Shown here piece after piece: positions 23,887 to 51,628 of a DNA stretch of 64,000 nt. Made by a program: the position numbers and the translations under genes. The notes under the pieces are model-generated. The model saw only the letters and a program-made list of their open reading frames with translations. It had not been told where the DNA came from and did no database searches. The DNA lies in the NCBI GenBank assembly GCA_003056205.1, contig LSNS01000004.1, positions 188,630 through 252,629 on the forward strand, written 5' to 3'. Position 1 is the stretch's first letter. Every line of letters starts with the position of its first letter. Source of the stretch: Parcubacteria group bacterium M6-OD1-4. Lineage in GTDB: Bacteria; Patescibacteriota; Patescibacteriia; Patescibacteriales; UBA12465.

Positions 23887-25482
23887 CTAACGTGATTTTG
23901 GAGTAACCGAAAAGCCCATATATTTACCAAACATCAAACGAATTTGGGCTTCTAAACAAGGGATAGCGCCAAAAATAATAATAGTTATTGGCACAAAGGC
24001 CCATTCAACAAAAATTATAATATTCTTTAAAACTGTATATTTCTTCGGTCGCGGCGGTAACAAAAGAACTGAAATTACTCCAGAAAGAATTAAGCCAATC
24101 ATGGCGATACTCATTAAGTTTTGAGTAATCATTGGCAAATTACCAGAAAGAACCATAGAATTAAAACGATTCCCTCCTAAAAAGAGTGGTAACCAACCAA
24201 TAACAGCAATAATTAAAGCATTGGTCGCCCAAGAATAGAAACCATAAATTTGAATAAAAATATGGCCGACAACACGTTTTTTATCAAAGCCTTTATTTTT
24301 CCAACGTTGAGCAGTATTAAATAATAAATAAGGAATATTTTCTCCACCCCAAGCCCATCGTCGTTGTTGTTTATATAAACTTTTAGCAGTCTTTAAATAA
24401 TTTTGATCACAAGTAACATCCATGGAAACCTTATAATTAATAGGTTCCACCCGATAATGACCGTTATAATACATTAAACAGTGCCAAAAAATACGCGAGT
24501 CTTCAGAAACATTAGCTGTTGACCAAAAACCAATCTCTACTAAAGCTTTCCAGGTCATAGAATGAGAAGAATAAGTCACCAAGCTTTCCTGCCGAATCTG
24601 CATAATCATCTGCCAAAAAGTATTAGAAGCAGCGGCTACCCGAGAAAAAAATGGTGAGTTCCAAATATTATTATGATAAACTGGAACGGGCTGGTAACTA
24701 GCGTGATAAGGATCATCAACGCTTAAAAATTTATATGTTAAAGCAAAAAAGTAACCGGGATAAACCACGGTATCAATATCAAAAACACTAACTAAAATTT
24801 TAGAATAATCTAATTGTTCACGATCAATTATTTCTTTTTTAATAACTCGAGCCGACCACGCTTGATTAGCCCCCTTTCCTTTTAATTCACCAGGAAGATG
24901 ATCGGGGTGCCAAGTAATAATGAAATGCCCAAACTGCTGAGCAAATTCTTGTTGAATGGCGGCAGCTCGTTCGTGAGCAGCTGTTCCTGCTCGCTCTTCC
25001 ATTGCTAAAGCAATAATCATCCGTGCTGGCGGATAACCATCTTTCAGTAAAGAAATTAAAGAAGATCGAATTATCTCTAAACTTTCATTATAATTAGGCA
25101 AAATAATTAATTGCCATAAATCGTCGGTAGAAACCCCCTGACGCGCTAAACATTTCGCAGCAATATCGGAAGAGTCAAATTGTTTATCTTTTAACTTTTG
25201 GCACGCTAAACGCCAATTAACTCGCAAACCTTTTTGTAATTGATAATAAGAACCAATTAAAAAAATAGCTAGATAAAGAACTAACAACAACCAATAAACA
25301 TCGAAAGCAATAATGAAGTAAGCCACCCAAACCGGCTCAAAATAAGATAAAATAATTAAAACTAATAAAGAAAAGATTGATAAAAACCCAGGTAGTATCT
25401 CCAATAAACGATAAATAGTATAATAACGACCGCTTAAATCTGTCGCTTTACCAATTTTAAGATAATTAACAATTGAGTTCAT
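23887..25482 (-). CDS. Membrane-embedded processive family 2 glycosyltransferase (cellulose/chitin-synthase-like)
   Basis: 531 aa with N- and C-terminal TM bundles flanking a GT-A domain. The domain has LPNYNES, DID and the processive-synthase signature QxxRW (QQRRWAWG). Confidence 0.7.
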   Translation of the reverse strand: MNSIVNYLKIGKATDLSGRYYTIYRLLEILPGFLSIFSLLVLIILSYFEPVWVAYFIIAFDVYWLLLVLYLAIFLIGSYYQLQKGLRVNWRLACQKLKDKQFDSSDIAAKCLARQGVSTDDLWQLIILPNYNESLEIIRSSLISLLKDGYPPARMIIALAMEERAGTAAHERAAAIQQEFAQQFGHFIITWHPDHLPGELKGKGANQAWSARVIKKEIIDREQLDYSKILVSVFDIDTVVYPGYFFALTYKFLSVDDPYHASYQPVPVYHNNIWNSPFFSRVAAASNTFWQMIMQIRQESLVTYSSHSMTWKALVEIGFWSTANVSEDSRIFWHCLMYYNGHYRVEPINYKVSMDVTCDQNYLKTAKSLYKQQRRWAWGGENIPYLLFNTAQRWKNKGFDKKRVVGHIFIQIYGFYSWATNALIIAVIGWLPLFLGGNRFNSMVLSGNLPMITQNLMSIAMIGLILSGVISVLLLPPRPKKYTVLKNIIIFVEWAFVPITIIIFGAIPCLEAQIRLMFGKYMGFSVTPKSR

Positions 25483-25484
25483 AG

Positions 25485-26054
25485 TTAAATAATATTTTTC
25501 CTTTTCAATTCAAAAAAACATTTAGCACAAGCCCGCACATCAACACTAGCATCATGAGCATCGGGAAAACTAGTTTTAAATAAACAATTATAAAGTTCAG
25601 TTAAATTAGGCCACTTATAACCATAACGCCCTGGCAAACGACAATAAGCAACACTTTTTTTCATGGTACAAATCTCTTGAGCCTTAATTAATGGATTATC
25701 TAAACCCACTCGGAGAAGCTCGGAACCAATAATTTTTTTATCAAAATCAATATTATGAGCCACTAAATAAGAACTTTGTCGAACATCACGTAAGAAATAA
25801 TTTAAGGCTAATTTTAATTCGATCCCTTCTCGCATAGCCTGTTCTTGAGAAATATGATGAATTTTAGTAGCTTCTTCAGGAATCACAAAACCTTCCGGTT
25901 TAATTATATAATTATAAGTTTCCCAAGCCCCGCCGTCAGCATCATATAAATTCCAAGCTAATTGTACCAAACGAGGCCAATTCAAAAAATCATCAAGAGG
26001 CGCTTGATAATTACGAGGCAAACCAGTTGTCTCTGTATCAAAAACTAAATACAT
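25485..26054 (-). CDS. DnaQ-like (DEDDh) 3'-5' exonuclease
   Basis: Exo I is VFDTETTGL, Exo II is AHNIDFD and Exo III is HDASVD. Confidence 0.85.
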   Translation of the reverse strand: MYLVFDTETTGLPRNYQAPLDDFLNWPRLVQLAWNLYDADGGAWETYNYIIKPEGFVIPEEATKIHHISQEQAMREGIELKLALNYFLRDVRQSSYLVAHNIDFDKKIIGSELLRVGLDNPLIKAQEICTMKKSVAYCRLPGRYGYKWPNLTELYNCLFKTSFPDAHDASVDVRACAKCFFELKRKNII

Positions 26055-26056
26055 AA

Positions 26057-27925
26057 TTAAAAATTATTATTGTTGATAGTAATTTCTTCACCTTCTTGTA
26101 ATTCTCGTTCCTGGAGTTGGCCACGAGCTAAGGAATTATCAGTTTTTACAGCTCGCCCACGAAAATCTTGAGGAGTCATTTTCTTTAAATCATTTAAAGA
26201 TAACTCGGGACCAGCGGAAAGAATTTTTTTCCGTTCCTGCTCTTTAGCTAACTGACGAGTAGCTAATTCATCACGTTTTTCTTTTTTTTTCTTGCTTAAA
26301 CATTCCCGGCAATAAATCGGACGAAGACCATCGGGCTCAAAATTTACAATTGTCTCTTGCCCACAAATACTACAAACCGTTTGATAACCATGTTCAATCT
26401 TAGATTCCAAAGGTGCTCGGGTAGATAATAATTGAGGGTTATTATTTACTTTCGGATGAGAATCATTTTGGGAATTAAAATGAGGCTGAACCGAAGAATG
26501 AGGACGAGACTGGATATTAGAAGTAGATTGCGAATGAGAATTTAGGGAAGAATTCAAATTAGAATGAGACGGCGACACTCTTGACGAAGTTTTTAAATTA
26601 GTAATATTATTTTTTCTTTTAGCTAACACTTTAGTATCATCCTGATTATAATTTTCATGCCAACTCATAATCTTCTCTTCGACCGTTTCTCGATCAGAAG
26701 CATATTTTTCACGAGAATAATCAATTACTTTCTGAACATTATGAGTTTCTTGAGCTTTGCTAAATGGTGGTAAACCCAGGGCAGAAAAGGGTGTAGAAGA
26801 TATTCCATCAATCATGAGCTTTAAATACATCTCATACTTTGGTAAATTAACCAAATCTTCTTCAGTAAAAGTTGGCGTAAATTCCTTCACCAATTCCTCG
26901 GCATCAGTTGCTCCCACCCGAAAAACAACCATTGTCCCAACGTTACCAAAAACCGCTGGTTTAACTTTTTCGCTTAATTGTTCAATATACTGGTGAGCTA
27001 AAATTAAATTCAAGCGATATTTTCGAGCCTCAGATAGAATATTAGCAAAACTATCAGTAGAAAAATTTTGAAATTCATCAATATATAAATAAAAATCTCG
27101 ACGATTTTCTTCAGGAACATCTACTCGACTCATCGCTGCTAATTGAATTTTAGTAATCATCATTGCTCCTAAAAGAGCCGAATTATCCTCGCCAATTCGT
27201 CCTTTTGACAAATTCATAATTAATACCTTACCCTGATCCATAATCTCCCGAATATCAATTGAAGAGCGAACTTGCCCAATAACATTCCTCATTAAAGAAC
27301 TAGAAAGAAACTGCCCAACCTTATTTTGAATTGGAGAAACTGCTTCCGAGGCAAAACGATCGGCATAACTAGAAAACTCTTTTTCCCAAAAAGCTTTTAC
27401 TACAGGATCTTTAATATTGGCTACAACTCGTTTCCGATAATTTTTATCAGATAACATCCGAACGACCCCCAATAGAGTGGAGCCCGGGAAATCTAAAATT
27501 GCTAAAATAGCATTACGCAAGATATACTCCAAACGTGGCCCCCAAGAATCAGCCCATAATTTTTGAAAAACACCAATTAAACCTGAGGCTACTAAATGCC
27601 GTAAATGAGGCTCAACTTGTTCCACGACATTAAAAGCAATTGGATAATCAATATCCGAAGGATTAAAATACACAATATCTTTAATACGCTCGGACGGAAT
27701 GTATTTCACAATTCTTTCAGCTAAATCACCATGAGGGTCAACAACTGCCACGCCATAACCAGCTCGAATATCATTAACAATCATATTCTCCAGAACTGTT
27801 GACTTACCCATACCAGTTTTCCCAATCAAATACATATGCCGACGACGATCATCAGTTTTGATACCAAATTTTTTAAATTTGTTACGGTAAGTAGTTTGAG
27901 CAAAAACCGCAATATCTTGATTCAT
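26057..27925 (-). CDS. Soluble FtsK/HerA-superfamily ATPase of the VirD4/TraD (type IV coupling protein)-like type, with a C-terminal CxxC-x17-CxxC zinc ribbon
   Basis: Walker A is IGKTGMGKST and Walker B is LYIDEFQNF. RKYRLNLILAHQYIEQL is a coupling-protein-like segment. No TM helix is seen. A low-complexity S/N/Q linker is followed by CSIC-17 aa-CREC (nt ~26300-26374) and a K/E-rich tail. Confidence 0.65.
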   Translation of the reverse strand: MNQDIAVFAQTTYRNKFKKFGIKTDDRRRHMYLIGKTGMGKSTVLENMIVNDIRAGYGVAVVDPHGDLAERIVKYIPSERIKDIVYFNPSDIDYPIAFNVVEQVEPHLRHLVASGLIGVFQKLWADSWGPRLEYILRNAILAILDFPGSTLLGVVRMLSDKNYRKRVVANIKDPVVKAFWEKEFSSYADRFASEAVSPIQNKVGQFLSSSLMRNVIGQVRSSIDIREIMDQGKVLIMNLSKGRIGEDNSALLGAMMITKIQLAAMSRVDVPEENRRDFYLYIDEFQNFSTDSFANILSEARKYRLNLILAHQYIEQLSEKVKPAVFGNVGTMVVFRVGATDAEELVKEFTPTFTEEDLVNLPKYEMYLKLMIDGISSTPFSALGLPPFSKAQETHNVQKVIDYSREKYASDRETVEEKIMSWHENYNQDDTKVLAKRKNNITNLKTSSRVSPSHSNLNSSLNSHSQSTSNIQSRPHSSVQPHFNSQNDSHPKVNNNPQLLSTRAPLESKIEHGYQTVCSICGQETIVNFEPDGLRPIYCRECLSKKKKEKRDELATRQLAKEQERKKILSAGPELSLNDLKKMTPQDFRGRAVKTDNSLARGQLQERELQEGEEITINNNNF

Positions 27926-27948
27926 ATTTTTTGCTTAGTGGTAAAAAA

Positions 27949-28194
27949 CTATTTTAAGAAACTTCGGTAATTTTTTATAAAATCTCGAATAACTGGTGGT
28001 AAATAAATAAAACCTAAAACAATTGGGATTAAAATTAACAAAAATCTTAAAATACTCCAAATCTGCTGCCATTTAATATATTGCTTGGTTTTTTTAGAAA
28101 TAGCAAGAATCTCTTCGTTTTTTTGAAGATTTAACTTTAATAGACGCTTCAAATCATCAATATCTGAAGGTTTATTTTGATTTTCATTATCCAT
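27949..28194 (-). CDS. Small membrane protein, unknown function
   Basis: 81 aa with a charged N-terminus and one or two hydrophobic helices (IWSILRFLLILIPIVLGFIYLPPVI). Confidence 0.45.
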   Translation of the reverse strand: MDNENQNKPSDIDDLKRLLKLNLQKNEEILAISKKTKQYIKWQQIWSILRFLLILIPIVLGFIYLPPVIRDFIKNYRSFLK

Positions 28195-28202
28195 AGACTA
28201 AA

Positions 28203-28922
28203 TTACTGACGAAGCTCACAAAGATTAACATATTTCTTACCAATATTAACAAAATTTGTCATTTCTTGAGAAGTATAAGAATCGCGAGCTTGGTATTTTT
28301 TATCAACTAACGGCGTATCTGACTTAAAAGACTGTAAATACCATTTACTTGCCCCTTGGATAGCTTTCCCCATCGCAATAAAATCATCAGCATTCAATAA
28401 ACCAGGAACAACCGTCGTCCGAAATTCATAGGGTAAACCACTAGACATTATAATCTTAACACTTTTTTTTAAATTATTACAATTAATCGGAACATCAACA
28501 ACCGTTTTATATTTAGCAAAGGGAGCCTTAATGTCCATTGCTAAATAATCAATAAGTTTTTGTTGTAATAATTCTTTCAACATTACAGGATTGGTGCCAT
28601 TAGTATCTAATTTTACTAAGTATCCGAGGTCCTTAATTCTCTTAATAAAAGATGGCAAATCAGGATGTAAGGTGGGTTCACCACCAGTAATAACTACCCC
28701 TTCTAAGCGACCAAATCTTTTTTTCAAAAAAAGAAAAAGATTCTCAACTGTTAAGGGTGAATCTTTTTCTTTATTTTTATCATCCAGTCCCTGATGGGGC
28801 AGGACAAGCAAAGGGTTATAACAAAAGTGACATCGGAAATTACAACCTTGCGTAAAGATAATCGCCGCTAAATGATCGGGGTAGTCGAGAAGAGTTAACT
28901 TCTCTAAACCACCAATAATCAT
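28203..28922 (-). CDS. nrdG: Anaerobic ribonucleoside-triphosphate reductase activating protein (radical SAM)
   Basis: Radical-SAM CxxxCxxC motif (CNFRCHFCYN) and the SAM-binding segment GVVITGGEPT. It lies downstream of nrdD. Confidence 0.9.
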   Translation of the reverse strand: MIIGGLEKLTLLDYPDHLAAIIFTQGCNFRCHFCYNPLLVLPHQGLDDKNKEKDSPLTVENLFLFLKKRFGRLEGVVITGGEPTLHPDLPSFIKRIKDLGYLVKLDTNGTNPVMLKELLQQKLIDYLAMDIKAPFAKYKTVVDVPINCNNLKKSVKIIMSSGLPYEFRTTVVPGLLNADDFIAMGKAIQGASKWYLQSFKSDTPLVDKKYQARDSYTSQEMTNFVNIGKKYVNLCELRQ

Positions 28923-28940
28923 AAAATTTGAAATTAAAAA

Positions 28941-29087
28941 TTAATTATTATTTTGACAAGTTTGATAAGTCTGGCGATCAGTAAACTCGGAAGCTTTCCC
29001 AGGATTCCAGTTTTTTGTTGGTGTTAACCAACCAACAACTCGACTATAAATAATACATTCTTGTCTCTGACTTTTAATTGGGCTCAT
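28941..29087 (-). CDS. 48-aa ORF encoding the NrdD C-terminal glycyl-radical motif as a separate polypeptide
   Basis: Below the ORF-track cutoff. ATG at 29087-29085 and TAA at 28943-28941. The translation is MSPIKSQRQECIIYSRVVGWLTPTKNWNPGKASEFTDRQTYQTCQNNN. The segment YSRVVG[WY]..P...WN.GK..EF..R is the class III RNR glycyl-radical signature. Confidence 0.7.
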   Translation of the reverse strand: MSPIKSQRQECIIYSRVVGWLTPTKNWNPGKASEFTDRQTYQTCQNNN

Positions 29088-29129
29088 ATATTTGTAATTA
29101 TTAAATTAATAAATTAAATTATAAACAAA

Positions 29130-31232
29130 TTATTTTCTAACATTTTTTTCTTTAGTCACTACGGTAGTTTTATTCTCAATATTACTGATATGAACTGGAT
29201 TCTCCCCAGCTTTTTCTTTATAACCAATCTCTTCATCACACTTTGGACAATACTTATGTTCCCCAGATAGATAACCATGCTTAGGACAGATGGAAAAAGT
29301 AGGGGTAATTGTAAAATATGGTAAACGATAATTTTCCACAATCTTTTTAACTAATTTCTTGGCCGCATTACCATTTGGTAAGCGTTCACCAATGAAGCCG
29401 TGAAGAACTGTGCCACCAGTATATTTAACCTGTAAATCATCTTGTAAATCAAGAGCGGAAAAAATATCGTTAGTAAATCCTACTGGTAAATGTGATGAAT
29501 TAGTATAATAAGGAGCAGTGCCATTAGCTTTAAAGGCTTCAGTATTGGCACAAATAATTCCAGGATAAAGTTCTTGATCTTTCTTGGCAAAACGATAAGT
29601 CGTACCTTCGGCTGGGGTGGCTTCTAAATTATAAAGATTATTAGTTTCATTTTGAAAGTCCATTAAGCGCTCACGCATATAGTCTAGCACTTCTGAAGCA
29701 AATTCTCGACCCTCGGGAGTTGACACATCTTGACCGATTAAATTTACTGCTGCTTCATTCATTCCATTAATACCAATGGTAGAAAAATGATTTTGCCAAT
29801 AAGAATTAAATTTTTCTTTAATATCGCTTAAATAATAAATAGAATAAGGGTATAAACGATCTTCACTAAATTTTTCAAGAATCTTTCTTTTAATTTCTAA
29901 ACTTTCTTTCGCTAATTCCATTAATTCTAAAACCCGTTTTTTAAATTGTTCTTTGTTTTTCGATAAAAAACCAATTCGCGGTAAATTAATGGTTACTACG
30001 CCAATAGAACCAGTTAAGGGATTAGCTCCAAATAAACCACCACCACGCTTGCGCAATTCACGATTATCTAAACGTAAACGGCAACACATTGAACGAGCAT
30101 CATCACGTTTCATGTCTGAGTTCACAAAATTAGAAAAATAAGGAATACCATATTTAGCTGTCATTTCCCAAGCGGGTTTTAAGCATTCTCGATCCCAATC
30201 AAAATCTTTATCGATACAATAAGTGGGAATTGGAAAACCAAAAACTCGACCAGTAGAATCACCAGCCAACATCACTTCGGCAAAAGCTTGATTGAAAACA
30301 TCCATTTCAGCTTGAAAATCTTTATACTTTTCAGGTTGAGGTTGGCCACCAATAATTACACTTTCTTCACCAGTCATCGGTGATGGAGTAACATCTAAAG
30401 TAATATTGGTAAAAGGAGTTTGAAATCCTACCCGAGTCGGAACATTGATATTAAACATGAATTCTTGTAAACCCTGCTTAACCTCTTTATAACTTAGATG
30501 ATCATAACGAATAAATGGTGCTAAATAAGTATCAAAATTAGCAAAAGCTTGAGCACCAGCTGCTTCACCCTGCATCGTGTAAAAGAAATTAATTATTTGT
30601 CCGAGAGCACTACGAAAATGTTTTGGAGGGTTACTCTGGACCTTTTCATCAACGCCACGAAAACCACGAATTAATAAATCTTTTAAATCCCAACCACAAC
30701 AATAGGGGGCTAAAAGCCCTAAATCATGAATATGTAAATCGCAATTAATATGGGCTAAACGAATATTTTCAGGATATAATTTATCTAACCAATAGCGTGC
30801 TGAAATCGCTGAAGAGATATAATTATTCAAACCTTGAACCGAAAAGCTCATATTACTATTTTCCTTTAATCGCCAATCTGCTCGTCCTAAATAATCTTCC
30901 ATTAGCTTATCGTTGACAGTCGCCGTATTAATATTACGTAACTGACGATGCTGATCACGATATAAAATATAAGACTTAGCAATTTTAATCAATTTATTCT
31001 CAATTAAAATTCCTTCAACGATATCTTGAACTTCTTCTACGGCTGGAATACTATGTTGATGGAATTTTTTATTAAGTCGTTCTACTACTTGTTTAGTCAA
31101 CTTCTCAGCAAGTTGCCGATCATCAACTTCAACTGCTAAGCCCGCCTTATAAATGGCAGTGACGATTTTATCTTGATTAAATTCACTAACTTCGCCAGAA
31201 CGTTTAATCAACTTGCTAATGGTTTCAGACAT
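29130..31232 (-). CDS. nrdD: Anaerobic (class III) ribonucleoside-triphosphate reductase large polypeptide with an ATP-cone, lacking the glycyl-radical motif
   Basis: 700 aa with an N-terminal ATP-cone (VIKRSGEVSEFNQDKI...YILYRDQHR). The catalytic barrel has the CCRLRLD thiyl loop, and a C-terminal zinc site reads CPKH-x10-CPKC. The ORF then ends in a K/E/T-rich tail without RVxG. Confidence 0.9.
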   Translation of the reverse strand: MSETISKLIKRSGEVSEFNQDKIVTAIYKAGLAVEVDDRQLAEKLTKQVVERLNKKFHQHSIPAVEEVQDIVEGILIENKLIKIAKSYILYRDQHRQLRNINTATVNDKLMEDYLGRADWRLKENSNMSFSVQGLNNYISSAISARYWLDKLYPENIRLAHINCDLHIHDLGLLAPYCCGWDLKDLLIRGFRGVDEKVQSNPPKHFRSALGQIINFFYTMQGEAAGAQAFANFDTYLAPFIRYDHLSYKEVKQGLQEFMFNINVPTRVGFQTPFTNITLDVTPSPMTGEESVIIGGQPQPEKYKDFQAEMDVFNQAFAEVMLAGDSTGRVFGFPIPTYCIDKDFDWDRECLKPAWEMTAKYGIPYFSNFVNSDMKRDDARSMCCRLRLDNRELRKRGGGLFGANPLTGSIGVVTINLPRIGFLSKNKEQFKKRVLELMELAKESLEIKRKILEKFSEDRLYPYSIYYLSDIKEKFNSYWQNHFSTIGINGMNEAAVNLIGQDVSTPEGREFASEVLDYMRERLMDFQNETNNLYNLEATPAEGTTYRFAKKDQELYPGIICANTEAFKANGTAPYYTNSSHLPVGFTNDIFSALDLQDDLQVKYTGGTVLHGFIGERLPNGNAAKKLVKKIVENYRLPYFTITPTFSICPKHGYLSGEHKYCPKCDEEIGYKEKAGENPVHISNIENKTTVVTKEKNVRK

Positions 31233-31233
31233 A

Positions 31234-31692
31234 TTATTTTTTTTCTTTAATTAATTTATTTAATTCTTTACGAAATTCATGAGCGTCTTTGAATGATTCA
31301 TAAACCGAGGCATAACGAATATAGGCGACTGGATCAACTTTTTTTAAGTTTTTCATTACTATCTGCCCAACTTGCAAGGAGGTAATTTCACTACTTTTTA
31401 AACGTTGCAAATCCCGTTCAATGGTATGAATCAATTTTTTAAAACGATCTTTAGTAATAGCCCTTTTCTCACAAGATTTCTTCAGACCACTTACCATTTT
31501 GTCACGATTATAAGATTCTCGCCGTCCATCTCGTTTGACAATCGCTAAATCAAGTAATTCTATCTCTTCATAAGTGGAAAAACGAAAACTACACTTTAAA
31601 CATTCCCGACGACGACGAATTGAAAGACCATCCGGAGCAACTCGCGAATCAACAACCTTAGTATCATTAAAATAACAAATTGGACATTTCAT
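31234..31692 (-). CDS. nrdR: Transcriptional repressor NrdR
   Basis: It starts MKCPICYFNDTKVVDSR with a second Cys pair in CLKC (zinc ribbon), followed by an ATP-cone (VKRDGRRESYNRDK). Confidence 0.95.
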   Translation of the reverse strand: MKCPICYFNDTKVVDSRVAPDGLSIRRRRECLKCSFRFSTYEEIELLDLAIVKRDGRRESYNRDKMVSGLKKSCEKRAITKDRFKKLIHTIERDLQRLKSSEITSLQVGQIVMKNLKKVDPVAYIRYASVYESFKDAHEFRKELNKLIKEKK

Positions 31693-31695
31693 ATA

Positions 31696-31711
31696 AATCT
31701 ATATTTTGTGG
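31696..31711. promoter_or_regulatory. Candidate NrdR box 1
   Basis: aatctatattttgtgg matches 12 of 16 positions of the published NrdR-box consensus acaCwAtATaTwGtgt (from memory). It sits 4 nt upstream of the nrdR ATG. Confidence 0.5.
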
Positions 31712-31728
31712 TTATTAAGCTACTACGA

Positions 31729-31744
31729 CCACTAAATATTGTGT
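31729..31744. promoter_or_regulatory. Candidate NrdR box 2
   Basis: ccactaaatattgtgt matches 14 of 16 positions of the NrdR-box consensus. The centre-to-centre distance to box 1 is 33 bp, about three helical turns, as is typical for tandem NrdR boxes. Confidence 0.6.
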
Positions 31745-31857
31745 TACATCTCTATTTTAGCAAACTTTCAAACTGAGGTCAATTTAGCTAATCTTAAAAT
31801 AAATATTGATATTTTATAAAGTTATCCACAGTTTTTTATAAAATTAGGTTTAAAATT

Positions 31858-31889
31858 ATAAAAAATTCTCCGATTTAAATGGAGAATTT
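31858..31889 (-). terminator. Rho-independent terminator downstream of ftsZ
   Basis: A 9-bp stem (aaattctcc/ggagaattt) with a 9-nt loop. On the minus strand it is followed by a T-rich tail (GGAGAATTTTTTAT). Confidence 0.6.
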
Positions 31890-31935
31890 TAATTAACAAA
31901 TTGAAATCTTAAATAAAACCTATAGATTCTGTTTT

Positions 31936-33192
31936 CTATCCCATCTTTTTCCTAATAAATGTGGGAATACTTAAATCTTCCTCTTCTTCTGGATTAGGAA
32001 CCCCCTTCTTTCTAAATAGTGCTGGAGTCTCTAAATCTTCTTCTTGATTACGAAGCTTCTCTGCTTTTTTTTCTAAAGCGGGTTTAACAGGAATATTTTT
32101 AAAAACAGAAAATTTACCTTTATGCTTATCAACGCTCGTTCGAGAACCAGTATCTTTCTTACCAGCTTTTTCAGCAATAAAGGAATTTGGGGTATAAGCA
32201 GAAGTCATTTCTTCTTTCTGGCTTTTACCATAACCATCAAAACCAGTAGCGACAACCGTAATTTTAATCTGATCTTTCATTTTTTCATCAACAACGGCTC
32301 CAAAAATAATTTTAGCATCTTCATCGGCAGCGGAAGTAATAACTTTTGCGGCTTCACTCACTTCAGTCATACTTAAATCTGGACCACCGGTGATAGTAAA
32401 AACAATGCCTCGAGCGCCATCAATGGACATATCTAATAAATTAGAGTTAATGGCATCTTTAGCGGCCTCTACGGCCTTATTTTCGCCACTAGCTTGTCCA
32501 ATACCCATTAAAGCTGAACCGGCGTTAGACATCACCGCTTTCACATCTGCGAAGTCAGCATTAATAATACCCGGAACAGTGATAATCTCGGCAATTCCTT
32601 GGACTCCTTGTCGCAAAACATCATCAGCAGTTTTAAAAGCTTCTAATAAAGTAGTACGTTTATCAATAACCTGAAGTAATTTATCATTAGAGATGGTAAT
32701 AATAGTATCAACTTTATCAGCTAGTTCTGAGAAGGCTCGATCAGCAATACTTTTCCTTTGCCCACCTTCAAACATAAACGGCTTAGTAACCACTGCTACT
32801 GTTAAAGCTCCAACATCTTTGGCAATCTGAGCCACAATTGGTGAGGCCCCAGAGCCAGTACCTCCCCCTAAACCACAAGTCACAAAAACCATATCACAAC
32901 CTTTAATAACTTCGCGAATTTCATTTTGGGATTCTTCGGCGGCGCCTTTTCCTAAATCAGGATTCATTCCCGCGCCTAAACCCTTAGTCACTGCTTTTCC
33001 GATGTGGATTTTTTCAGTAGCTTTATTATAATGAAGAGCTTGAACATCGGTATTAATTGCGACAAAACCCACCCCTTTAATACCATTAGCAATCATCCGG
33101 TTGATAGCGCTTCCACCGCCACCACCGACACCGATGACTTTTATTTTAGCAAAAGTTTCAATTTCTGGTTTAATTTCGGCCATAGATTTCAT
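31936..33192 (-). CDS. ftsZ: Cell division GTPase FtsZ
   Basis: The tubulin signature GGGTGSG, NTDVQAL, and a C-terminal linker with conserved terminal peptides (LETPALFRKK, DLSIPTFIRKK). Confidence 0.97.
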   Translation of the reverse strand: MKSMAEIKPEIETFAKIKVIGVGGGGGSAINRMIANGIKGVGFVAINTDVQALHYNKATEKIHIGKAVTKGLGAGMNPDLGKGAAEESQNEIREVIKGCDMVFVTCGLGGGTGSGASPIVAQIAKDVGALTVAVVTKPFMFEGGQRKSIADRAFSELADKVDTIITISNDKLLQVIDKRTTLLEAFKTADDVLRQGVQGIAEIITVPGIINADFADVKAVMSNAGSALMGIGQASGENKAVEAAKDAINSNLLDMSIDGARGIVFTITGGPDLSMTEVSEAAKVITSAADEDAKIIFGAVVDEKMKDQIKITVVATGFDGYGKSQKEEMTSAYTPNSFIAEKAGKKDTGSRTSVDKHKGKFSVFKNIPVKPALEKKAEKLRNQEEDLETPALFRKKGVPNPEEEEDLSIPTFIRKKMG

Positions 33193-33222
33193 TTTAAAAA
33201 ATTAATTATATTTAAATTAAGC

Positions 33223-34482
33223 CTAACGAGGCATTATTTTATTCCAAAAAGATTTAGTTTTTTCTAATAATCCTCCTAAACTATTTTTTAAAGTATTATC
33301 AATAGTTTCACTACTATCCATATTACTGCCCCAAATAACTAAGCCGAGGGCGGTTAAAAATTCAGGATTCTTGACCTTATCAATAACAACATTAATATTG
33401 TTCGCCACGCCTAAGGCTGCTGGTAAACGAAGTTTTTTCTTAGCTTCTTCTACTAGACCATTCAATTTAGAACCACCACCAACAAAAATTACTCCCGCTG
33501 GCAACATCCCCGAGCGATCAATGCGCTTAAATTCATTATCAATTTTTTCAAAAATCTCTTCTACTCGAGCACTGATAATTTCTGCTAAATATTTTTTAGA
33601 AATCACATCAAGATCATCGTTCACTTCTTCTTCTTGGACTAATTGACTAATATCAATCTCATCTTTTTTATTAATATCTTCAACAGTCGCTGTGCCATAT
33701 TCTTGTTTGATTCTTTCCGCTAAATTAATCGGGCAACGTAAACCAATGGCAATATCAGAAGTGATATGTTCAGAACCAATTGGGAGAATAGCGGTGTGAA
33801 TTAGATTTCGTTCTTCATAAACTGCTAAAGAAACGGTAGCCGAGCCAAGATTAACGAGAGCGACACCTAAATCTTTCTGTTTATTACTCAGGACGGCTTC
33901 TGCAGAGGCTAGAGGAGCGATTACTAAATCTTCTATTTCCAAGCCCGTGCGATAAATAGCTTTCGTTAAATTCTTTATTTGCGTACTTAAACCTTGGATA
34001 ATTAAGGTTTCCACTTCCAGACGAATACCATTCATGCCGAGAGGATCTTTCACATCGCTTTGGTTATCAACTCCAAACTTAATAGGAATAACGTGGAGAA
34101 TTTCATAATTAACTGGAACCGCTAAAGCCCGAGCAGCTTCAATAGCTCGATTAACATCAGTTTCATTAATTTCTCCGTCACTCCGACTAACCGCCACAAC
34201 CCCCTTTGAACGTTCACATTTAATATAAGGGTCATTAACACTCACCCAAACTTTAGTAATTGGAATACCCACCAAGCGTTCCGCTTTTTCTAAAACCGCT
34301 GAAATCGAAGAAGTCGTATCTTCAATACTATTAACAATACCACGACTAACTCCCGCTGTGGGACCCGAGACCGCCCCAATGATTTGTAATTCATCGCCAG
34401 TCGGTCCCGAAATTTTTTGACCAACTACTAAACGAATAGCAGTTGAACCAACATCTAAACCGGCAATAATATTATCCCTCAT
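33223..34482 (-). CDS. ftsA: Cell division protein FtsA
   Basis: Actin-fold motifs (GLDVGSTAIRLVVG, VNLGSATVSLAVY, FVGGGSKLNGL). It lies immediately upstream of ftsZ. Confidence 0.93.
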   Translation of the reverse strand: MRDNIIAGLDVGSTAIRLVVGQKISGPTGDELQIIGAVSGPTAGVSRGIVNSIEDTTSSISAVLEKAERLVGIPITKVWVSVNDPYIKCERSKGVVAVSRSDGEINETDVNRAIEAARALAVPVNYEILHVIPIKFGVDNQSDVKDPLGMNGIRLEVETLIIQGLSTQIKNLTKAIYRTGLEIEDLVIAPLASAEAVLSNKQKDLGVALVNLGSATVSLAVYEERNLIHTAILPIGSEHITSDIAIGLRCPINLAERIKQEYGTATVEDINKKDEIDISQLVQEEEVNDDLDVISKKYLAEIISARVEEIFEKIDNEFKRIDRSGMLPAGVIFVGGGSKLNGLVEEAKKKLRLPAALGVANNINVVIDKVKNPEFLTALGLVIWGSNMDSSETIDNTLKNSLGGLLEKTKSFWNKIMPR

Positions 34483-47037: not shown

Positions 47038-50000
47038 CTAGGGAGTACACTTTAATTTTGTCCAAACTGTTGAGCTCGGATAAGCAGAATCTAGCGACAT
47101 TACACAAGTTAATTCCCCACTCTGAATACTTTCGTTATGGGAACTATCAAAGGCGGAAACTGTAAAATAATTATTACCCAGAGAGAATTTATTAGTTGGC
47201 AAACTGAGACTCGTACTAGAAGCTTGGGAATCGAAAGATTCGCCATATTTTCCAGAAATAATTCCATGATATAAACGATAAAAACTCACGCCATTAGTAC
47301 TAGTTGCCCAAGAAAATTTAATAGTCGAAGTAGGACTGATTATGGCCTGTAAATTAGTTGGCACACTCGGAGGTGTTTGATCGCTTGGAATGGCAGTGAC
47401 TACTGGCGATAAAGCACTTTCTGTCTTGTCAGTCGAAATAACACTAATCTGAAAGTTATAGGATACTCCATTACTTAAACCACCAATACTAGTCTGACAA
47501 TTATTAGTTTTTACTCCCAGTTGACAAACTTTAGTGGCCAAGACCTCTTGAGAACTAGTAGCTCCTTGACTAGGTGATGAATAATAAATTTTATAAGAAT
47601 AAACTTTATTGGCATTAGATTGCCAATTAAGTTTAATTAGCCCCCCAGTTAATTGGTCGCTAGCATTAGTAATTGTCGCCCCACTAAGAATTGGAGCCCG
47701 GAAAAAATAAGATTGTTTGAGAAGCCCCCAAGTACAAATTCCAGTTTGTTGCCCATTGCTATTGTTTGAACCACAAGCCTCACCGACTGTTTGACAAGTT
47801 TGGTGGTTAGAACTACAAACTAAGGTTGCTGATCGTCCCAAAGTTAGGGGCTGACTATTTAAAGCTGGTAAATTATCACTAGTCCCCGAAGAACCCTGGT
47901 CCCGACAATAATAGAATTGATAATTATAATTAGCGGAGTTAGTGCCTTGAGAAGTATCCGTCCAAGGAGCCCAAGTTCCACTAACTAAATTAACTGGTGG
48001 CCAAGGATTATTACAAATAAAAACATAAATATTGGCGGAAGTATTAAAACCATTCCCACCCGAATAAGTATTGCAATCACTGGTACATTTTGGACTAATA
48101 AAATTATTCATATCAACTGTCGCCGTGAGTTTGGTTTGGGCATCAGTTATTCCTGGATTAGCTCGTACAAAAACTTCATTAGCGGGTAAATTAGGGACCG
48201 AGCTTATTGTCGCAATACGAGGCACAGTATTATCCAAAGAAAATTTCCAAGTCCAGTTATAACCAATAACTGGTTGGAGAATTTGTTTATCAATACTATA
48301 AGCAGTCGCGGTAAAAACTTTATCACTATCGGCAACCGTATCAAAGCTGGAATTACTAAGAGCGGCATTAGCATCATTTTCTTGAGACTGTAAAGCGTTA
48401 TTAGTAGTATTAAATAAATAGGAAGAAGGGGTAAGAGTAACATGATTCACTGCACAAATTCCATTCATTGGTCCTTGGGCTGATAAGGTAGAAAACTTAA
48501 TAATTTGAGAATTAGCGTAGTAATTATTATTAAATCTAATTAATTTTCCTGAAATATAAGTAGCTGTGGTGGGGTTAAAATAACCAGGACCCACAAAACC
48601 AATATCTTTAAAATTCAAAATGCCCGTTTTATTATTTAAGCTTTCATCACCTTTAACTACTACATAATAAGTGGCTGTTGGATCCAATATTTTCTTTGGT
48701 CTGAAAACTAAAGAGCTATTTTGACCATGATTTTCGTTATAAACCATCCCCGGGATAGAACAATAAAGACTATTAGAATTTGGACCGGCAGCAAATACTG
48801 AACTAGATAAATTACCAGTTAAAAATGCTAAAGTTCGACGAAATCGTTGTTCTACCTTTTGCCACCAAGTTTGTGGGTCTGAATTTAATTCACTAATTAA
48901 AGAATTATTAGTAACTAGAAAAGTTCCTGATGGACAAACTCCATTTTTATAATCTTTGGCTTCTAATAATAAGAAATTCTGCGCATAACTAGAACTATCT
49001 AAACGCTGATTAAAATTAATTTTCACTAGAGTATTCCGGCAAACATTAACAGCTAAATGTTTAGGAGAAGTAGAAACAATTTTCGGTCGGACTATAGTTG
49101 ACGAAGTACTCGTGCTATTACATTTTAGTAGACAAGAACTAACATTACTATAAGTCCCAGTTGCTGATGGCGTAGAAGTAGCACATAAGTCAGAATTAGT
49201 AGCAGGTGGTGGTAATTTACAACTATAATAAGCACAATAACCATTATTAGTAGAGACTGCGCTATCAATTATCTGATTACCAGACCGACATTTTGCTCCG
49301 CCAGTAGCTTGAGAATCAAAACAACAACGAGTATCTGCCTGACAATCATTTAAGGTAGTAAAACTACCGCAGGCTGGTTGAACGGGGCAACGATTATTAC
49401 AAACATCAAGAGTTTTATAATTTCCTTTTTTAACTGGGGTACTGGTAGCACATTGGGAAGGATTAGCTAGAGAACAATTATAATAAGCACAATAACCTTT
49501 GTCGCTGGAACCAGTAATTTGGCTGCCAGACCGACATTTCGCTCCGCCAGTAGCTTCAGCATCAAAACAACAACCAGTATTCGCTTGACAGGCATTTAAA
49601 TTAGTAAAAGCAGTACAAGGATCAGACGGTGGTGGTGGCGGCGGAGAGATAATTCCAAAACCAGTATTAAAACTCCATTCAAAAACTGAAGTCGGAATAT
49701 TAATCAAACAATCTTGCAAAGTATTAACACAACGACCATGTTGATAAGTATTTTGAGCACAACAAACTTGAGTACCACTACAATCACTATTAATCGTACA
49801 GGAACCGATATTAAAATTAAGAGTATTGCCCCAAGCACTATTTTTTACAACTTTCACAGGACCTGTTAGGGCTTTATTGGGGACTTTAGTTTTAATTAAA
49901 TCCGCTTGGCCACTTTGCTGAATAGTTCCGGTCGCATTTTCATTAGGGTTGAACTTGACCAAACCATTACTATTAACGGCCCCAAAATATTCTCCCCAAA

Positions 50001-51564
50001 GAGTCACTGGAGTGCCCACGGGACCATTTTGAGGATCTATTTTACATAAACTAGTTTGTAGCGCTGAATTTTTATCAAATTTAAAAGCACGAGGATTTAA
50101 AATATTAGTATTAATAATATCTTTACCTAAATTAATACTAATGGGATAAGAACCATTGGCTAGACCAGTAGGAACTTTTACAATAATCTGATTATTAGTC
50201 CAAACAGAATTTAAACAAACTGTTGGAAAATTATAACTAGCTTCTACTTTTCCAAAATAAACTTGAGTTTTACCCCGTTGCTGACCGAAACCACTGCCTT
50301 GAATGGTGATATATTGACCAGTATTGCCAGTAGTCGGGGAGAAACTTGAAATAAAGGCCCCTGACCCTGGTTCGGCTTGTTTAGTAAATAGTAAATAATT
50401 ACTTTTTTCTAATGAACCATTAATTTTGGTTTGTACAAAGCTACTGGAAATTCCCGTTTTAATATTAGGAATTGTTGAACTACCAGTTAAACCAGCAGGG
50501 CTTAGAAAAGAAGATTGCAAAGCTTGAATATTATTCTGATAATTACCGAAATAAGCCGAAGCTGAATGTAAATTAACTCCTAAATATCCCACCGAGGAAC
50601 TCAGGGTTCCTTGGCTAGGACTAAGTTGACATAAACCAGGACGCAGAATTTTATTTACTTGAAAATCTGGAATTTTCGGACCATAAGAATCATTACTTAA
50701 GTCAGAAGAACCATTTTGATTAATAACTTTAAGAGGACCAGTAGTTGCTCCTTTAGGAACCGCAATAATTATTTGATTTGTCTTCCAAGAATTAACACAG
50801 GCTGGATTTAAATTATTAACTTGATTAGCAAGAACTGGCTTTCCTTGTCCAACAAAAACAACTTTGCTACTCGTGGCTGAATAAGTCCCAAAATTTTGCC
50901 CAGAAATAGTAATAAAATTATCAACTGTGCCATTGGGAGTTACTAAATTACAGCTTCCTGAAGAACACTGGCTATTAGTAGAGCAAGATTTATCTAAATT
51001 ATTAGTGCAAAATCCACCAGCGGGACTAATTATTTGAATTACGGGATGACCACTACTAGCCTGACAATTTGGGTTAGGATTAGTAGCACAATTATTAGGA
51101 ACACCTCCGCCGCCACCGCCAGTACAATCAGTACCAACACAAGTACCAAAGCCGTTGCCATTACCATTCCCATTATTTCCACCATTACCACCATTCATCG
51201 CCCCACCCAATTTAGAGATTAAAAAGGTGGCAATCCCCCAAGAAGCCAAAATAATAACTAAACCAATAATTCCATTTTTTAAGATTTTCTTTGCCGTTTC
51301 TATTTTTTCTTCATTACCATTAGAAGTTAACCAAATAAACCCAGCATAAGCAATAAAACCCACAGCGATTACTCCTAAAAATCCTAAAGCAATATTCACA
51401 ATTCGACCTAATAAAATTCGCGGATCAACACTAGTTAATGATCCACCTAAACCATTATTAACAGCATTCAAACCAAGCCCTTGTGCAAATACAAAATTAG
51501 CAACAAAGAGTCCACCAATTAATAGACTAAATACTAATAAATTTTTAATAATTTTTCTAATCAC
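47038..51564 (-). CDS. Giant (1508 aa) surface protein: VirB2/TrbC-like pilin-type N-terminal hairpin fused to IPT/TIG-like, Cys-rich, Big_5-like and fibronectin-III-like domains
   Basis: It has a signal peptide and two hydrophobic helices flanking WLTSNGNEEKIETAKKILKNG, followed by a G/N low-complexity stretch. There are three IPT/TIG-like units (ITISGQNFG, ITIQGSGFG, VTLWGEYFG), a PPPPPP hinge and two tandem Cys-rich modules. The C-terminus has FN3-like units (PPSVPTNLQA...). Confidence 0.75.
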   Translation of the reverse strand: MIRKIIKNLLVFSLLIGGLFVANFVFAQGLGLNAVNNGLGGSLTSVDPRILLGRIVNIALGFLGVIAVGFIAYAGFIWLTSNGNEEKIETAKKILKNGIIGLVIILASWGIATFLISKLGGAMNGGNGGNNGNGNGNGFGTCVGTDCTGGGGGGVPNNCATNPNPNCQASSGHPVIQIISPAGGFCTNNLDKSCSTNSQCSSGSCNLVTPNGTVDNFITISGQNFGTYSATSSKVVFVGQGKPVLANQVNNLNPACVNSWKTNQIIIAVPKGATTGPLKVINQNGSSDLSNDSYGPKIPDFQVNKILRPGLCQLSPSQGTLSSSVGYLGVNLHSASAYFGNYQNNIQALQSSFLSPAGLTGSSTIPNIKTGISSSFVQTKINGSLEKSNYLLFTKQAEPGSGAFISSFSPTTGNTGQYITIQGSGFGQQRGKTQVYFGKVEASYNFPTVCLNSVWTNNQIIVKVPTGLANGSYPISINLGKDIINTNILNPRAFKFDKNSALQTSLCKIDPQNGPVGTPVTLWGEYFGAVNSNGLVKFNPNENATGTIQQSGQADLIKTKVPNKALTGPVKVVKNSAWGNTLNFNIGSCTINSDCSGTQVCCAQNTYQHGRCVNTLQDCLINIPTSVFEWSFNTGFGIISPPPPPPSDPCTAFTNLNACQANTGCCFDAEATGGAKCRSGSQITGSSDKGYCAYYNCSLANPSQCATSTPVKKGNYKTLDVCNNRCPVQPACGSFTTLNDCQADTRCCFDSQATGGAKCRSGNQIIDSAVSTNNGYCAYYSCKLPPPATNSDLCATSTPSATGTYSNVSSCLLKCNSTSTSSTIVRPKIVSTSPKHLAVNVCRNTLVKINFNQRLDSSSYAQNFLLLEAKDYKNGVCPSGTFLVTNNSLISELNSDPQTWWQKVEQRFRRTLAFLTGNLSSSVFAAGPNSNSLYCSIPGMVYNENHGQNSSLVFRPKKILDPTATYYVVVKGDESLNNKTGILNFKDIGFVGPGYFNPTTATYISGKLIRFNNNYYANSQIIKFSTLSAQGPMNGICAVNHVTLTPSSYLFNTTNNALQSQENDANAALSNSSFDTVADSDKVFTATAYSIDKQILQPVIGYNWTWKFSLDNTVPRIATISSVPNLPANEVFVRANPGITDAQTKLTATVDMNNFISPKCTSDCNTYSGGNGFNTSANIYVFICNNPWPPVNLVSGTWAPWTDTSQGTNSANYNYQFYYCRDQGSSGTSDNLPALNSQPLTLGRSATLVCSSNHQTCQTVGEACGSNNSNGQQTGICTWGLLKQSYFFRAPILSGATITNASDQLTGGLIKLNWQSNANKVYSYKIYYSSPSQGATSSQEVLATKVCQLGVKTNNCQTSIGGLSNGVSYNFQISVISTDKTESALSPVVTAIPSDQTPPSVPTNLQAIISPTSTIKFSWATSTNGVSFYRLYHGIISGKYGESFDSQASSTSLSLPTNKFSLGNNYFTVSAFDSSHNESIQSGELTCVMSLDSAYPSSTVWTKLKCTP
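49120..49620 (-). repeat. In-frame tandem duplication of an ~81-86-aa cysteine-rich module inside the 1508-aa gene
   Basis: Copy 1 (49378-49620) reads PCTAFTNLNACQANTGCCFDAEATGGAKCRSGSQ...GYCAYYNC. Copy 2 (49120-49377) reads PACGSFTTLNDCQADTRCCFDSQATGGAKCRSGNQ...GYCAYYSC. The two share near-identical nucleotide stretches (ccagaccgacattt.gctccgccagtagctt.ag.atcaaaacaaca). Confidence 0.85.
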
Positions 51565-51628
51565 AAAGTTTAAATTTTTATTATGTTTTCTATTATCTTA
51601 TTTCTAATTTTCCTAATTATTTAATAAT

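Follow-up and report, generated by a model that had tools for sequence, protein, structure and literature searches.

In a 64,000-nucleotide stretch of DNA from Parcubacteria group bacterium M6-OD1-4 (contig LSNS01000004.1, positions 188,630 to 252,629; hereafter the window), a ribonucleotide reductase (RNR) of class III, the anaerobic type, is encoded by two open reading frames (ORFs). On the minus strand the locus runs in the order nrdR, a 700-residue NrdD ORF, a 42-nucleotide spacer, a 48-residue ORF and nrdG, and the radical glycine motif lies on the 48-residue ORF. We conclude that the two products most probably form a natural two-subunit class III RNR, and put the probability of this reading at roughly 0.82. 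The split itself is real, old, widespread and under selection, and the arrangement represents a known enzyme in a new architecture. Judging from the sequences, it is very likely that the two chains function in trans. The features on which the argument is based are as follows.

29130..31232, minus strand: large NrdD ORF, 700 residues, TAA stop at 29132-29130 (Pfam NRDD, NF006126)
30945..31211, minus strand: ATP-cone, residues 8-96, allosteric activity domain (PF03477, 3.9e-19)
30234..30248, minus strand: internal R329-V-F-G332-F333, barrel strand (FPxPT), aligned with QMFTF of Thermotoga NrdD
30081..30086, minus strand: finger loop Cys383-Cys384 (SMCCRLRL), predicted thiyl-radical site; invariant, matching Thermotoga ASCCRL by eye
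29238..29288, minus strand: zinc ribbon C649-P-K-H652-x9-C662-P-K-C665 on the large subunit (sequence motif, homologue alignment)
29133..29222, minus strand: C-terminal tail, residues 671-700, K/E/T-rich (compared with the tails of 120 homologues)
29088..29129, minus strand: intergenic spacer, 42 nucleotides, stops in all three frames
28941..29087, minus strand: small ORF, 48 residues, MSPIKSQRQECIIYSRVVGWLTPTKNWNPGKASEFTDRQTYQTCQNNN, Gly19 codon at 29031-29033 (NRDD profile 531-562)
28203..28922, minus strand: nrdG, 239 residues, radical S-adenosylmethionine activase (TIGR02495 NrdG2, 5.7e-61)

The original prediction, made from the sequence alone, had described a large ORF with an ATP-cone, a barrel and a C-terminal zinc site, an AT-rich spacer closed in all frames, and an ATG at 29087 opening a 48-residue ORF that ends 18 nucleotides before nrdG (ATG at 28922). 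These coordinates were confirmed throughout. The CPKH...CPKC zinc site was also found as described, but the gap between its halves is x9 and not x10.

The large ORF matched Pfam NRDD (PF13597) at 1.6e-181 over profile positions 1-529 of 562, and the small ORF matched positions 531-562 of the same profile (E 3.5e-7). Between them, the two ORFs thus cover a single NrdD profile. Among the NCBIfam models, NF006126 scored 1023 bits with the large ORF (cutoff 548), and the small ORF matched only the C-terminal ends of NrdD models. No match of the small ORF to PF01228 (Gly_radical, the pyruvate formate-lyase type) was found, NRDD being its only Pfam match at E<=0.1. The small-ORF motif is YSRVVG19W...WNPGK...E..DR. 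When the small-ORF profile is aligned to Thermotoga maritima NrdD (4COI), Y14-SRVVG19 is paired with Y616-MRIVG621. Gly19 thus falls on G621, which we take to be the radical glycine of the Thermotoga enzyme, as the original prediction had anticipated for an alignment to full-length NrdD. Since the alignment of the large ORF to Thermotoga NrdD (residues 105-609) ends at residue 609 and the small-ORF motif starts at residue 616, the break is located between the last zinc ligand and the glycine loop.

Apart from this loop, the large subunit has the sequence features of a class III NrdD. The conserved barrel and finger-loop residues are all kept, with 81-88% mean column identity. The assignment of the thiyl-radical site follows C329/C330 of Thermotoga NrdD and C290 of the phage T4 enzyme, which are presumably the equivalent residues. 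Of the predicted zinc ligands, the three cysteines (C649, C662, C665) do not vary in the wider subfamily, where H652 is conserved to at least 90%, and the ribbon aligns with the C-x3-H...CPVC site of Thermotoga. The large chain ends 35 residues after C665, and no RVxG[FYW] radical motif was found on it 15-20 residues past the zinc site. After the conserved CDEEIGY, the tail varies in length and sequence among relatives, with no conserved column past G670; it is a remnant of the linker. The NRDD barrel profile, the finger-loop Cys, the zinc ribbon and a nearby NrdG, by which a class III NrdD is recognized, are therefore all present, and the radical glycine is absent from the single chain and present in the locus as a whole.

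An unnoticed RVxG motif within the large ORF had been named as a possible objection. Such a motif does exist, RVFGF at residues 329-333, yet it is a barrel strand and not the radical motif. G332 is invariant in the close clade and less than 90% conserved in the wider subfamily (consensus GRVFxFPIPT), and the position is not glycine in Thermotoga NrdD. We rejected it as a hidden radical site on these grounds. MAFFT placed the small ORFs on the internal RVFGF when no fused sequence anchored the C-terminus, and this placement was wrong. Among the large-ORF homologues of the split clade, P0119 (1019 residues) and P0142 (1030 residues) are about 330 residues longer than the others. P0119 carries an intein splicing domain (PF14890), so that a split gene can host an intein too.

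The small ORF is conserved well beyond the window. An identical 48-residue protein was found on 6 contigs (NCBI and Logan), and an identical large protein on 3. A further 27 clusters at 90% identity (34-69 residues) are 65-81% identical to the window protein. Over the 28 clusters, 14 residues never vary, Y14-S-R-V-V-G19-W among them, and the start Met-Ser-Pro is conserved for the most part. The conservation in relatives that the original prediction had called for was thus observed, in the form of a large stand-alone family. The median ratio of nonsynonymous to synonymous substitution rates (dN/dS) of the small-ORF core was about 0.07 (107 usable pairs), a rough estimate because dS is near saturation. 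This value indicates strong purifying selection on the small ORF, roughly but clearly. In the split locus L055, the small ORF shares 91% identity with the C-terminus of L086, its fused sister, and the barrels of the two share 74% (L numbers denote individual loci). The small ORF evolves in step with the barrel, under the same constraint as in the fused forms.

The family is also numerous. The small-ORF profile was searched against 1.84 billion cluster representatives and gave 4112 matches at E<=1e-3, of which 349 reached E<=1e-10; since clustering at 50% identity is less efficient for short proteins than for long ones, the count over-represents stand-alone relative to fused forms. The best 150 of the 4112 matches were all stand-alone proteins of 47-115 residues, and 145 of these 150 begin with Met. 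Taken together, these are small stand-alone proteins of 40-115 residues with the radical glycine motif, their own start codon and Shine-Dalgarno (SD) sites where the lineage uses them. RefSeq contains isolate proteins of 45-48 residues, WP_143786648.1 (Orenia metallireducens), WP_018247994.1 (O. marismortui), WP_114457115.1 (Halanaerobium) and WP_141677998.1, named merely 'anaerobic ribonucleoside-triphosphate reductase(-like protein)'.

Two variations of the small subunit were observed. Longer small subunits of 87-113 residues with an N-terminal CxxC...CxxC zinc ribbon of their own occur in Moraniibacteriota (L056, L060, L065, L067, L071 and L082 are loci of this kind) and on some viral contigs (L124, L133, L143, L148), as well as in P0198 and P0260. 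The large subunit in such loci retains its own ribbon too, and the loci form one clade in a neighbour-joining tree. Many small subunits and some fused relatives (L076, L087) have Cys-rich C-terminal tails (CC, CxC, GCGC, CGSCGC). Examples are the window protein (28944-28964; C44, ...QTCQNNN) and those of L031, L036, L041, L042, L054, L056, L061 and L065. These tails are similar to the redox tails at the C-terminus of class I and class II RNRs, and might have to do with re-reduction of the thioredoxin type in the subfamily with the CC finger loop.

The distribution of the split was analyzed in GTDB with one genome per species, which gave at least 590 relatives. The best 80 of these, together with the window and three contigs from metagenomes or metagenome-assembled genomes (MAGs), made up a set of 84 loci. 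Seventy-six of the 84 are split and eight are fused, and each locus has exactly one glycine motif. No second 'spare' copy of the small ORF was found in the cellular loci or elsewhere in the window. Each of the 83 comparison loci, which are the 84 without the window, had an NrdG, and its length did not differ between split and fused systems. In the best 120 large-ORF homologues (80-87% identical), only a variable tail comes after CPKCDEEIGY; none of the 120 carries the glycine motif, so that the continuous ORF which would have spoken against a split in close relatives was not encountered among them. Contigs from JGI, ENA, NCBI and Logan showed the same gene order, with an nrdD of 679-694 residues, a small ORF of 45-46 residues and spacers of 38, 11 and 61 nucleotides. 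The pattern goes far beyond what chance would produce. Independent assemblies show the arrangement again.

Within Patescibacteria, the split was found in Falkowbacteria, Paceibacterota, Moraniibacteriota, Saccharibacteria and Veblenbacteria. It was also found in DPANN archaea, in Halanaerobiales and in one Synergistales MAG, and it is retained among sequences just about 60% identical, in bacteria and archaea. In Orenia metallireducens, Halanaerobium sp., their relatives and the Synergistales MAG, the small gene follows nrdG and is separated from the large ORF by 720-814 nucleotides. The neighbour-joining tree placed the window within a large, purely split clade of Patescibacteria. The fused forms consist of an Omnitrophota/Syntrophales group with a short linker and four scattered sequences, two of which (L066 and L086) have long linkers resembling joined split forms; the linker of L086 is CPICDEEIGLKKSAKAKSLERKRTRCEVYSR, and that of L066 is similar. 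Many MAGs with a Patescibacteria-type operon (L010, L012, L013, L018-L020, L022 and others) bear the title 'uncultured Gammaproteobacteria bacterium', and one each is labelled Planctomycetota and Nanoarchaeia. The taxonomy given in these records does not look dependable.

The junction between the two ORFs showed no sign of a special element. The two ORFs are in frame (42 nucleotides, or 14 codons), with two in-frame TAA codons between them (29132-29130 and 29108-29106), and the last 30 nucleotides of the spacer are 97% A+T. The minimum free energy of the junction RNA was -5.5 kcal/mol (z = +0.5), which corresponds to no stable structure. No Rfam family matched the junction, and no terminator-like site was found between the large and small ORFs. 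In relatives, the spacer ranges from -11 to 276 nucleotides in any frame, apart from the loci in which nrdG intervenes. An SD sequence was found at only 1 of 40 genes in the window genome (G+C 33.6%), and the leaders in the window are 67-97% A+T, most of them at least 80%. These facts suggest that the genome initiates translation independently of SD sequences. Given the SD count of 1 in 40, the AT-rich leader of the small ORF is typical here. In four of the five loci with the small gene after nrdG (L057, L059, L069, L075), the gene is preceded by AAGGAGG or AGGAGG and starts with ATG or GTG; the fifth, the Synergistales MAG (L083), has only AAGG ahead of it. In some DPANN and Patescibacteria loci the small-ORF start overlaps or abuts the large-ORF stop (L046 and L068, -1; L088, -11; L062, +1; L084, +2; L074, +3), which is the pattern expected for translational coupling.

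Small ORFs were also found on predicted viral contigs. IMG/VR was searched with the small-ORF alignment, and the best 80 of 166 relatives (L169-L248) were taken with 10-kb flanks. Short stand-alone ORFs accounted for 73 of these 80 matches, and 78 of the 80 loci had no NrdD barrel or NrdG within 10 kb. A hidden Markov model of the large subunit found matches only in the flanks of L175 and L241, and NrdG was found at only one locus. NrdD relatives on viral contigs are mostly fused genes, and their contigs coincide with those of the small-ORF list only in L175 and L241. Two examples of the orphan ORFs are given below.

L170, 10001-10138: orphan viral small ORF
L179, 10001-10105: orphan viral small ORF

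The sampled viral neighbours are phage-like. Collagen-like tail fibres and an amidase directly follow the small ORF of L179, and an SU10 adaptor (L176) and an HNH endonuclease (L209) were found at other loci. No recurrent partner gene was found beside the orphan ORFs in the sampled loci. Many viral copies carry the YSRVVGW signature of the window clade and are 62-74% identical to the window protein. Since these contigs have the small gene alone, the small protein must use the large subunit and the NrdG of the host, if the contigs are truly viral. The viral orphans suggest that the small protein works in trans and that it is a limiting or consumable component. A host-dependent viral small protein is what an exchangeable or consumable radical subunit predicts. 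Y06I of phage T4, a GrcA-like cofactor for pyruvate formate-lyase, offers a parallel to the viral small ORFs.

In the two-subunit enzyme that we propose, the 700-residue product would provide the ATP-cone, the ten-stranded barrel with the Cys383-Cys384 finger loop, and the zinc ribbon. The 48-residue product, made from its own start codon, would be the glycyl-radical part of the canonical C-terminal domain that inserts into the barrel. NrdG, which is expected to make the glycyl radical on the small subunit, would take a hydrogen from Gly19; the small protein would occupy the barrel of the large subunit; and the radical would then move to Cys384 and on to the nucleotide. Several points weigh against this proposal. 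Homology alone is the basis on which non-covalent assembly and activity of the two chains are inferred. AlphaFold2 on the concatenated large and small chains (27 close homologues) gave a mean predicted local distance difference test score of 46.8, which is unusable. The neighbour-joining tree has no support values, and both one ancient split with later re-fusions and several independent splits are possible. The IMG/VR contigs are predicted viruses, whose gene content was taken from a few contigs over at most 20 kb each. Finally, cellular genomes would look no different if a long flexible linker had undergone fission neutrally.

The last point concerns what the split is good for. It is plausible that a separate radical piece is cheap to replace after O2 cleaves the chain at the glycine, and the small subunit may be exchangeable between large subunits. 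The spare-part role of GrcA/YfiD, which reportedly goes back to Wagner et al. in 2001, serves as the analogy by which the small subunit could likewise be replaceable, and the viral orphans lend this indirect support. In its full form, this idea holds that the protein of about 45 residues is a free-standing, exchangeable glycyl-radical cofactor that is activated by NrdG off the enzyme, plugs into vacant large subunits and is discarded after oxygen damage, phage copies sustaining the host reductase during infection. We regard it as tentative, with somewhat less than an even chance of being right. The competing explanation is that a long disordered linker from the zinc ribbon to the glycine loop simply gained a stop and a start, giving a permanent fission in which the chains bind tightly and act as a fused NrdD would, without any gain in exchange or repair; the viral copies would then be decoys, inhibitors or tools of host takeover. 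Fused relatives with long linkers do exist (L086, L066), NrdG is of similar length in both systems, and other RNR classes tolerate splits, as in NrdJa/NrdJb and phage Aeh1 NrdA (PMC3267527, PMC9669993). Against a neutral event stand the persistence of the split at about 60% identity across bacteria and archaea, the relocation of the small gene behind nrdG with an SD of its own, the elaboration of small subunits with their own zinc ribbon and the orphan copies on phage-like contigs. These facts together speak for a module that leads its own life, and we consider the neutral explanation a serious but rather doubtful one.

The remaining alternatives question whether there are two working chains at all. 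Recoding into one polypeptide could be imagined, since the window ORFs share a reading frame, AAA is the codon just before the stop and occurs again two codons ahead of the ATG, and a few relatives have an overlapping stop and start (spacer -1 or -11). Bypassing of the T4 gene 60 type, however, depends on take-off and landing codons that match, on a gap fixed at about 50 nucleotides and on a stem-loop at the take-off site. The gap here is not fixed, since it varies from -11 to 276 nucleotides in all three frames and reaches 720-814 with nrdG in between, the take-off codon is unmatched in the spacers of L001 and L003, and the junction RNA is unstructured and belongs to no Rfam family. The conserved start codon and MSP N-terminus, with SD sites where the lineage uses them, also argue against bypassing, double stop read-through and frameshifting. 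As for trans-splicing by a split intein, the first chain would have to close with IntN and the second to open with an IntC of at least about 35 residues ending in HN followed by C, S or T; only about 7 residues precede the small-ORF core, no intein/Hint domain was matched, and the tail of the large subunit is variable. Recoding is thus extremely unlikely, and we rejected it together with an intein, an intron or any other RNA element at the junction on the evidence of the spacer, structure, Rfam and intein searches; the original prediction had been right to set aside a group I intron and an intein. It is very unlikely, though slightly less so, that the small protein is no catalytic carrier but a regulator or a decoy substrate of NrdG, with a large subunit that is inactive or uses another radical source. 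Viral orphans could in principle inhibit the host reductase competitively. The large subunit, however, conserves the barrel and finger loop yet has no conserved glycine motif, and the small ORF has lost none of the radical loop's hallmark residues and evolves in step with the barrel. A stop inside a normally continuous gene, when seen in a single window, resembles damage, and the original prediction had accordingly listed a recent disruption and an assembly artefact beside a natural two-piece NrdD. Both were refuted by the comparative data, and their probability is next to nil: the identical small protein on 6 contigs and the large on 3 come from different sources, the same architecture is found in ENA, JGI, NCBI and Logan assemblies and in isolate genomes, and dN/dS is 0.07. 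The natural two-piece enzyme, in contrast, is supported by the 76 of 84 split loci, the conservation and the same dN/dS.

The neighbourhood of the locus is described for completeness. The gene and the candidate signal upstream of nrdD are the following.

31234..31692, minus strand: nrdR, 152 residues, repressor of nrd gene transcription (Pfam Zn_ribbon_NrdR 1.1e-19, ATP-cone 2.5e-17)
31754..31782, minus strand: best sigma-70-like promoter match, TTGACC-17-TAAAAT with TG, 5' of nrdR (consensus match only)

The nrdR stop lies 1 nucleotide ahead of the nrdD start, and the position of nrdR is shared with relatives. The match at 31754..31782 is a possible candidate for the operon promoter; the count of sigma-70-like sites across the region is not above that in shuffled sequence. 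The synteny at 23887-34482 (minus strand) is conserved in L001, L003 and L006, and comprises ftsA, ftsZ, nrdR, the large nrdD, the small ORF and nrdG, followed by a TrwB/TraG-like ATPase with a treble-clef zinc finger (26057..27925), an RNase T-like exonuclease, a GT2 glycosyltransferase and DivIC. Directly after nrdG in the window is an 81-residue ORF (27949-28194, minus strand) with one predicted hydrophobic helix and no Pfam match. Its slot is occupied by unannotated ORFs of 99 residues in L003 and 86 residues in L006, and is not filled in L001. Farther away, at 47038-54337 (minus strand), two very large proteins of 1508 and 902 residues are encoded, with a domain resembling pilins of type IV secretion systems first and Ig-like, TIG and fn3 repeats after it. 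They are probably surface or pilus-tip proteins.

To our knowledge, every characterised glycyl-radical enzyme has its radical glycine on the catalytic chain, and we know of no autonomous radical-glycine carrier other than GrcA. Reviews likewise place the radical glycine of class III RNRs on the catalytic chain throughout. The RNR and glycyl-radical literature that we found describes only split class I, split class II and GrcA. No description of a split class III RNR was found in the searchable literature, including the 2022 papers on RNR phylogeny and insertions and a June 2026 review of glycyl-radical enzymes, within a coverage of journals that is incomplete. Here, an essential enzyme has the autonomous arrangement as its normal state, throughout much of Patescibacteria and DPANN archaea and in some cultured halophilic anaerobes. 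If the small protein is indeed an exchangeable cofactor, the enzyme would be a class III RNR with the logic of class I, a catalytic and a radical subunit, and no natural substrate known for a glycyl-radical activase would be smaller than its small protein. The field has long asked how the activase and the buried glycine loop come together, and a natural 5-kDa substrate should allow activation to be studied apart from the barrel. Repair of an oxygen-damaged class III RNR by a swap of subunits also becomes testable, and the cultured Orenia and Halanaerobium make experiments feasible. In annotation, a large gene is taken for a complete NrdD, and a small one is named a reductase fragment or missed. 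Any survey that counts an enzyme only if the glycine motif is on its main chain will get class III numbers wrong in just those lineages where class III is possibly the sole RNR.

Compared with the canonical NrdD and NrdG of phage T4, E. coli, Thermotoga maritima (4COI/4U3E) and Prevotella copri (8P23), the split enzyme has the same domain order and is homologous throughout. It shares the ATP-cone, the barrel, the finger-loop Cys, the zinc ribbon, the loop RVxG[FYW]...WN.GK, an adjacent activase and an upstream nrdR. Unlike the canonical enzyme, it has the glycine loop as a separate product, with a break corresponding to Thermotoga residues 609 and 616, and a large chain that ends in the conserved DEEIGY and a variable tail. 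In class I RNR, the stable radical is likewise on a separate, smaller subunit (beta) that docks on the catalytic one (alpha). This is only an analogy, since the radical subunits are unrelated and class I uses a tyrosyl or metal radical and long-range transfer.

Two described systems come closer in one respect each. The class II RNR of Pseudomonas aeruginosa is split into NrdJa and NrdJb (PMC4520616). As in that enzyme and in Aeh1 NrdA, the catalytic chain of an RNR is formed from two adjacent genes whose products must assemble, and as in NrdJ the break parts a C-terminal functional module from the barrel, the NrdJ module including the zinc finger. The RNR class is a different one, however, and the detached piece here carries the radical cofactor, has about 45 residues and lacks a zinc ribbon in most lineages. 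GrcA/YfiD of E. coli and Y06I of phage T4 are autonomous glycyl-radical 'spare part' cofactors for pyruvate formate-lyase (PMC8683613). By analogy, the small subunit resembles GrcA in being a small stand-alone protein that would supply the radical-glycine loop to a large chain without one, in using the activase of the parent enzyme and in having a phage version. It differs from GrcA in that there is no homology between the two (no PF01228 match), in its length (about 45 residues against 127) and in serving NrdD instead of pyruvate formate-lyase. Whereas GrcA is a backup for an enzyme with a loop of its own, the small ORF encodes the sole glycine loop in cells, as an obligate subunit.

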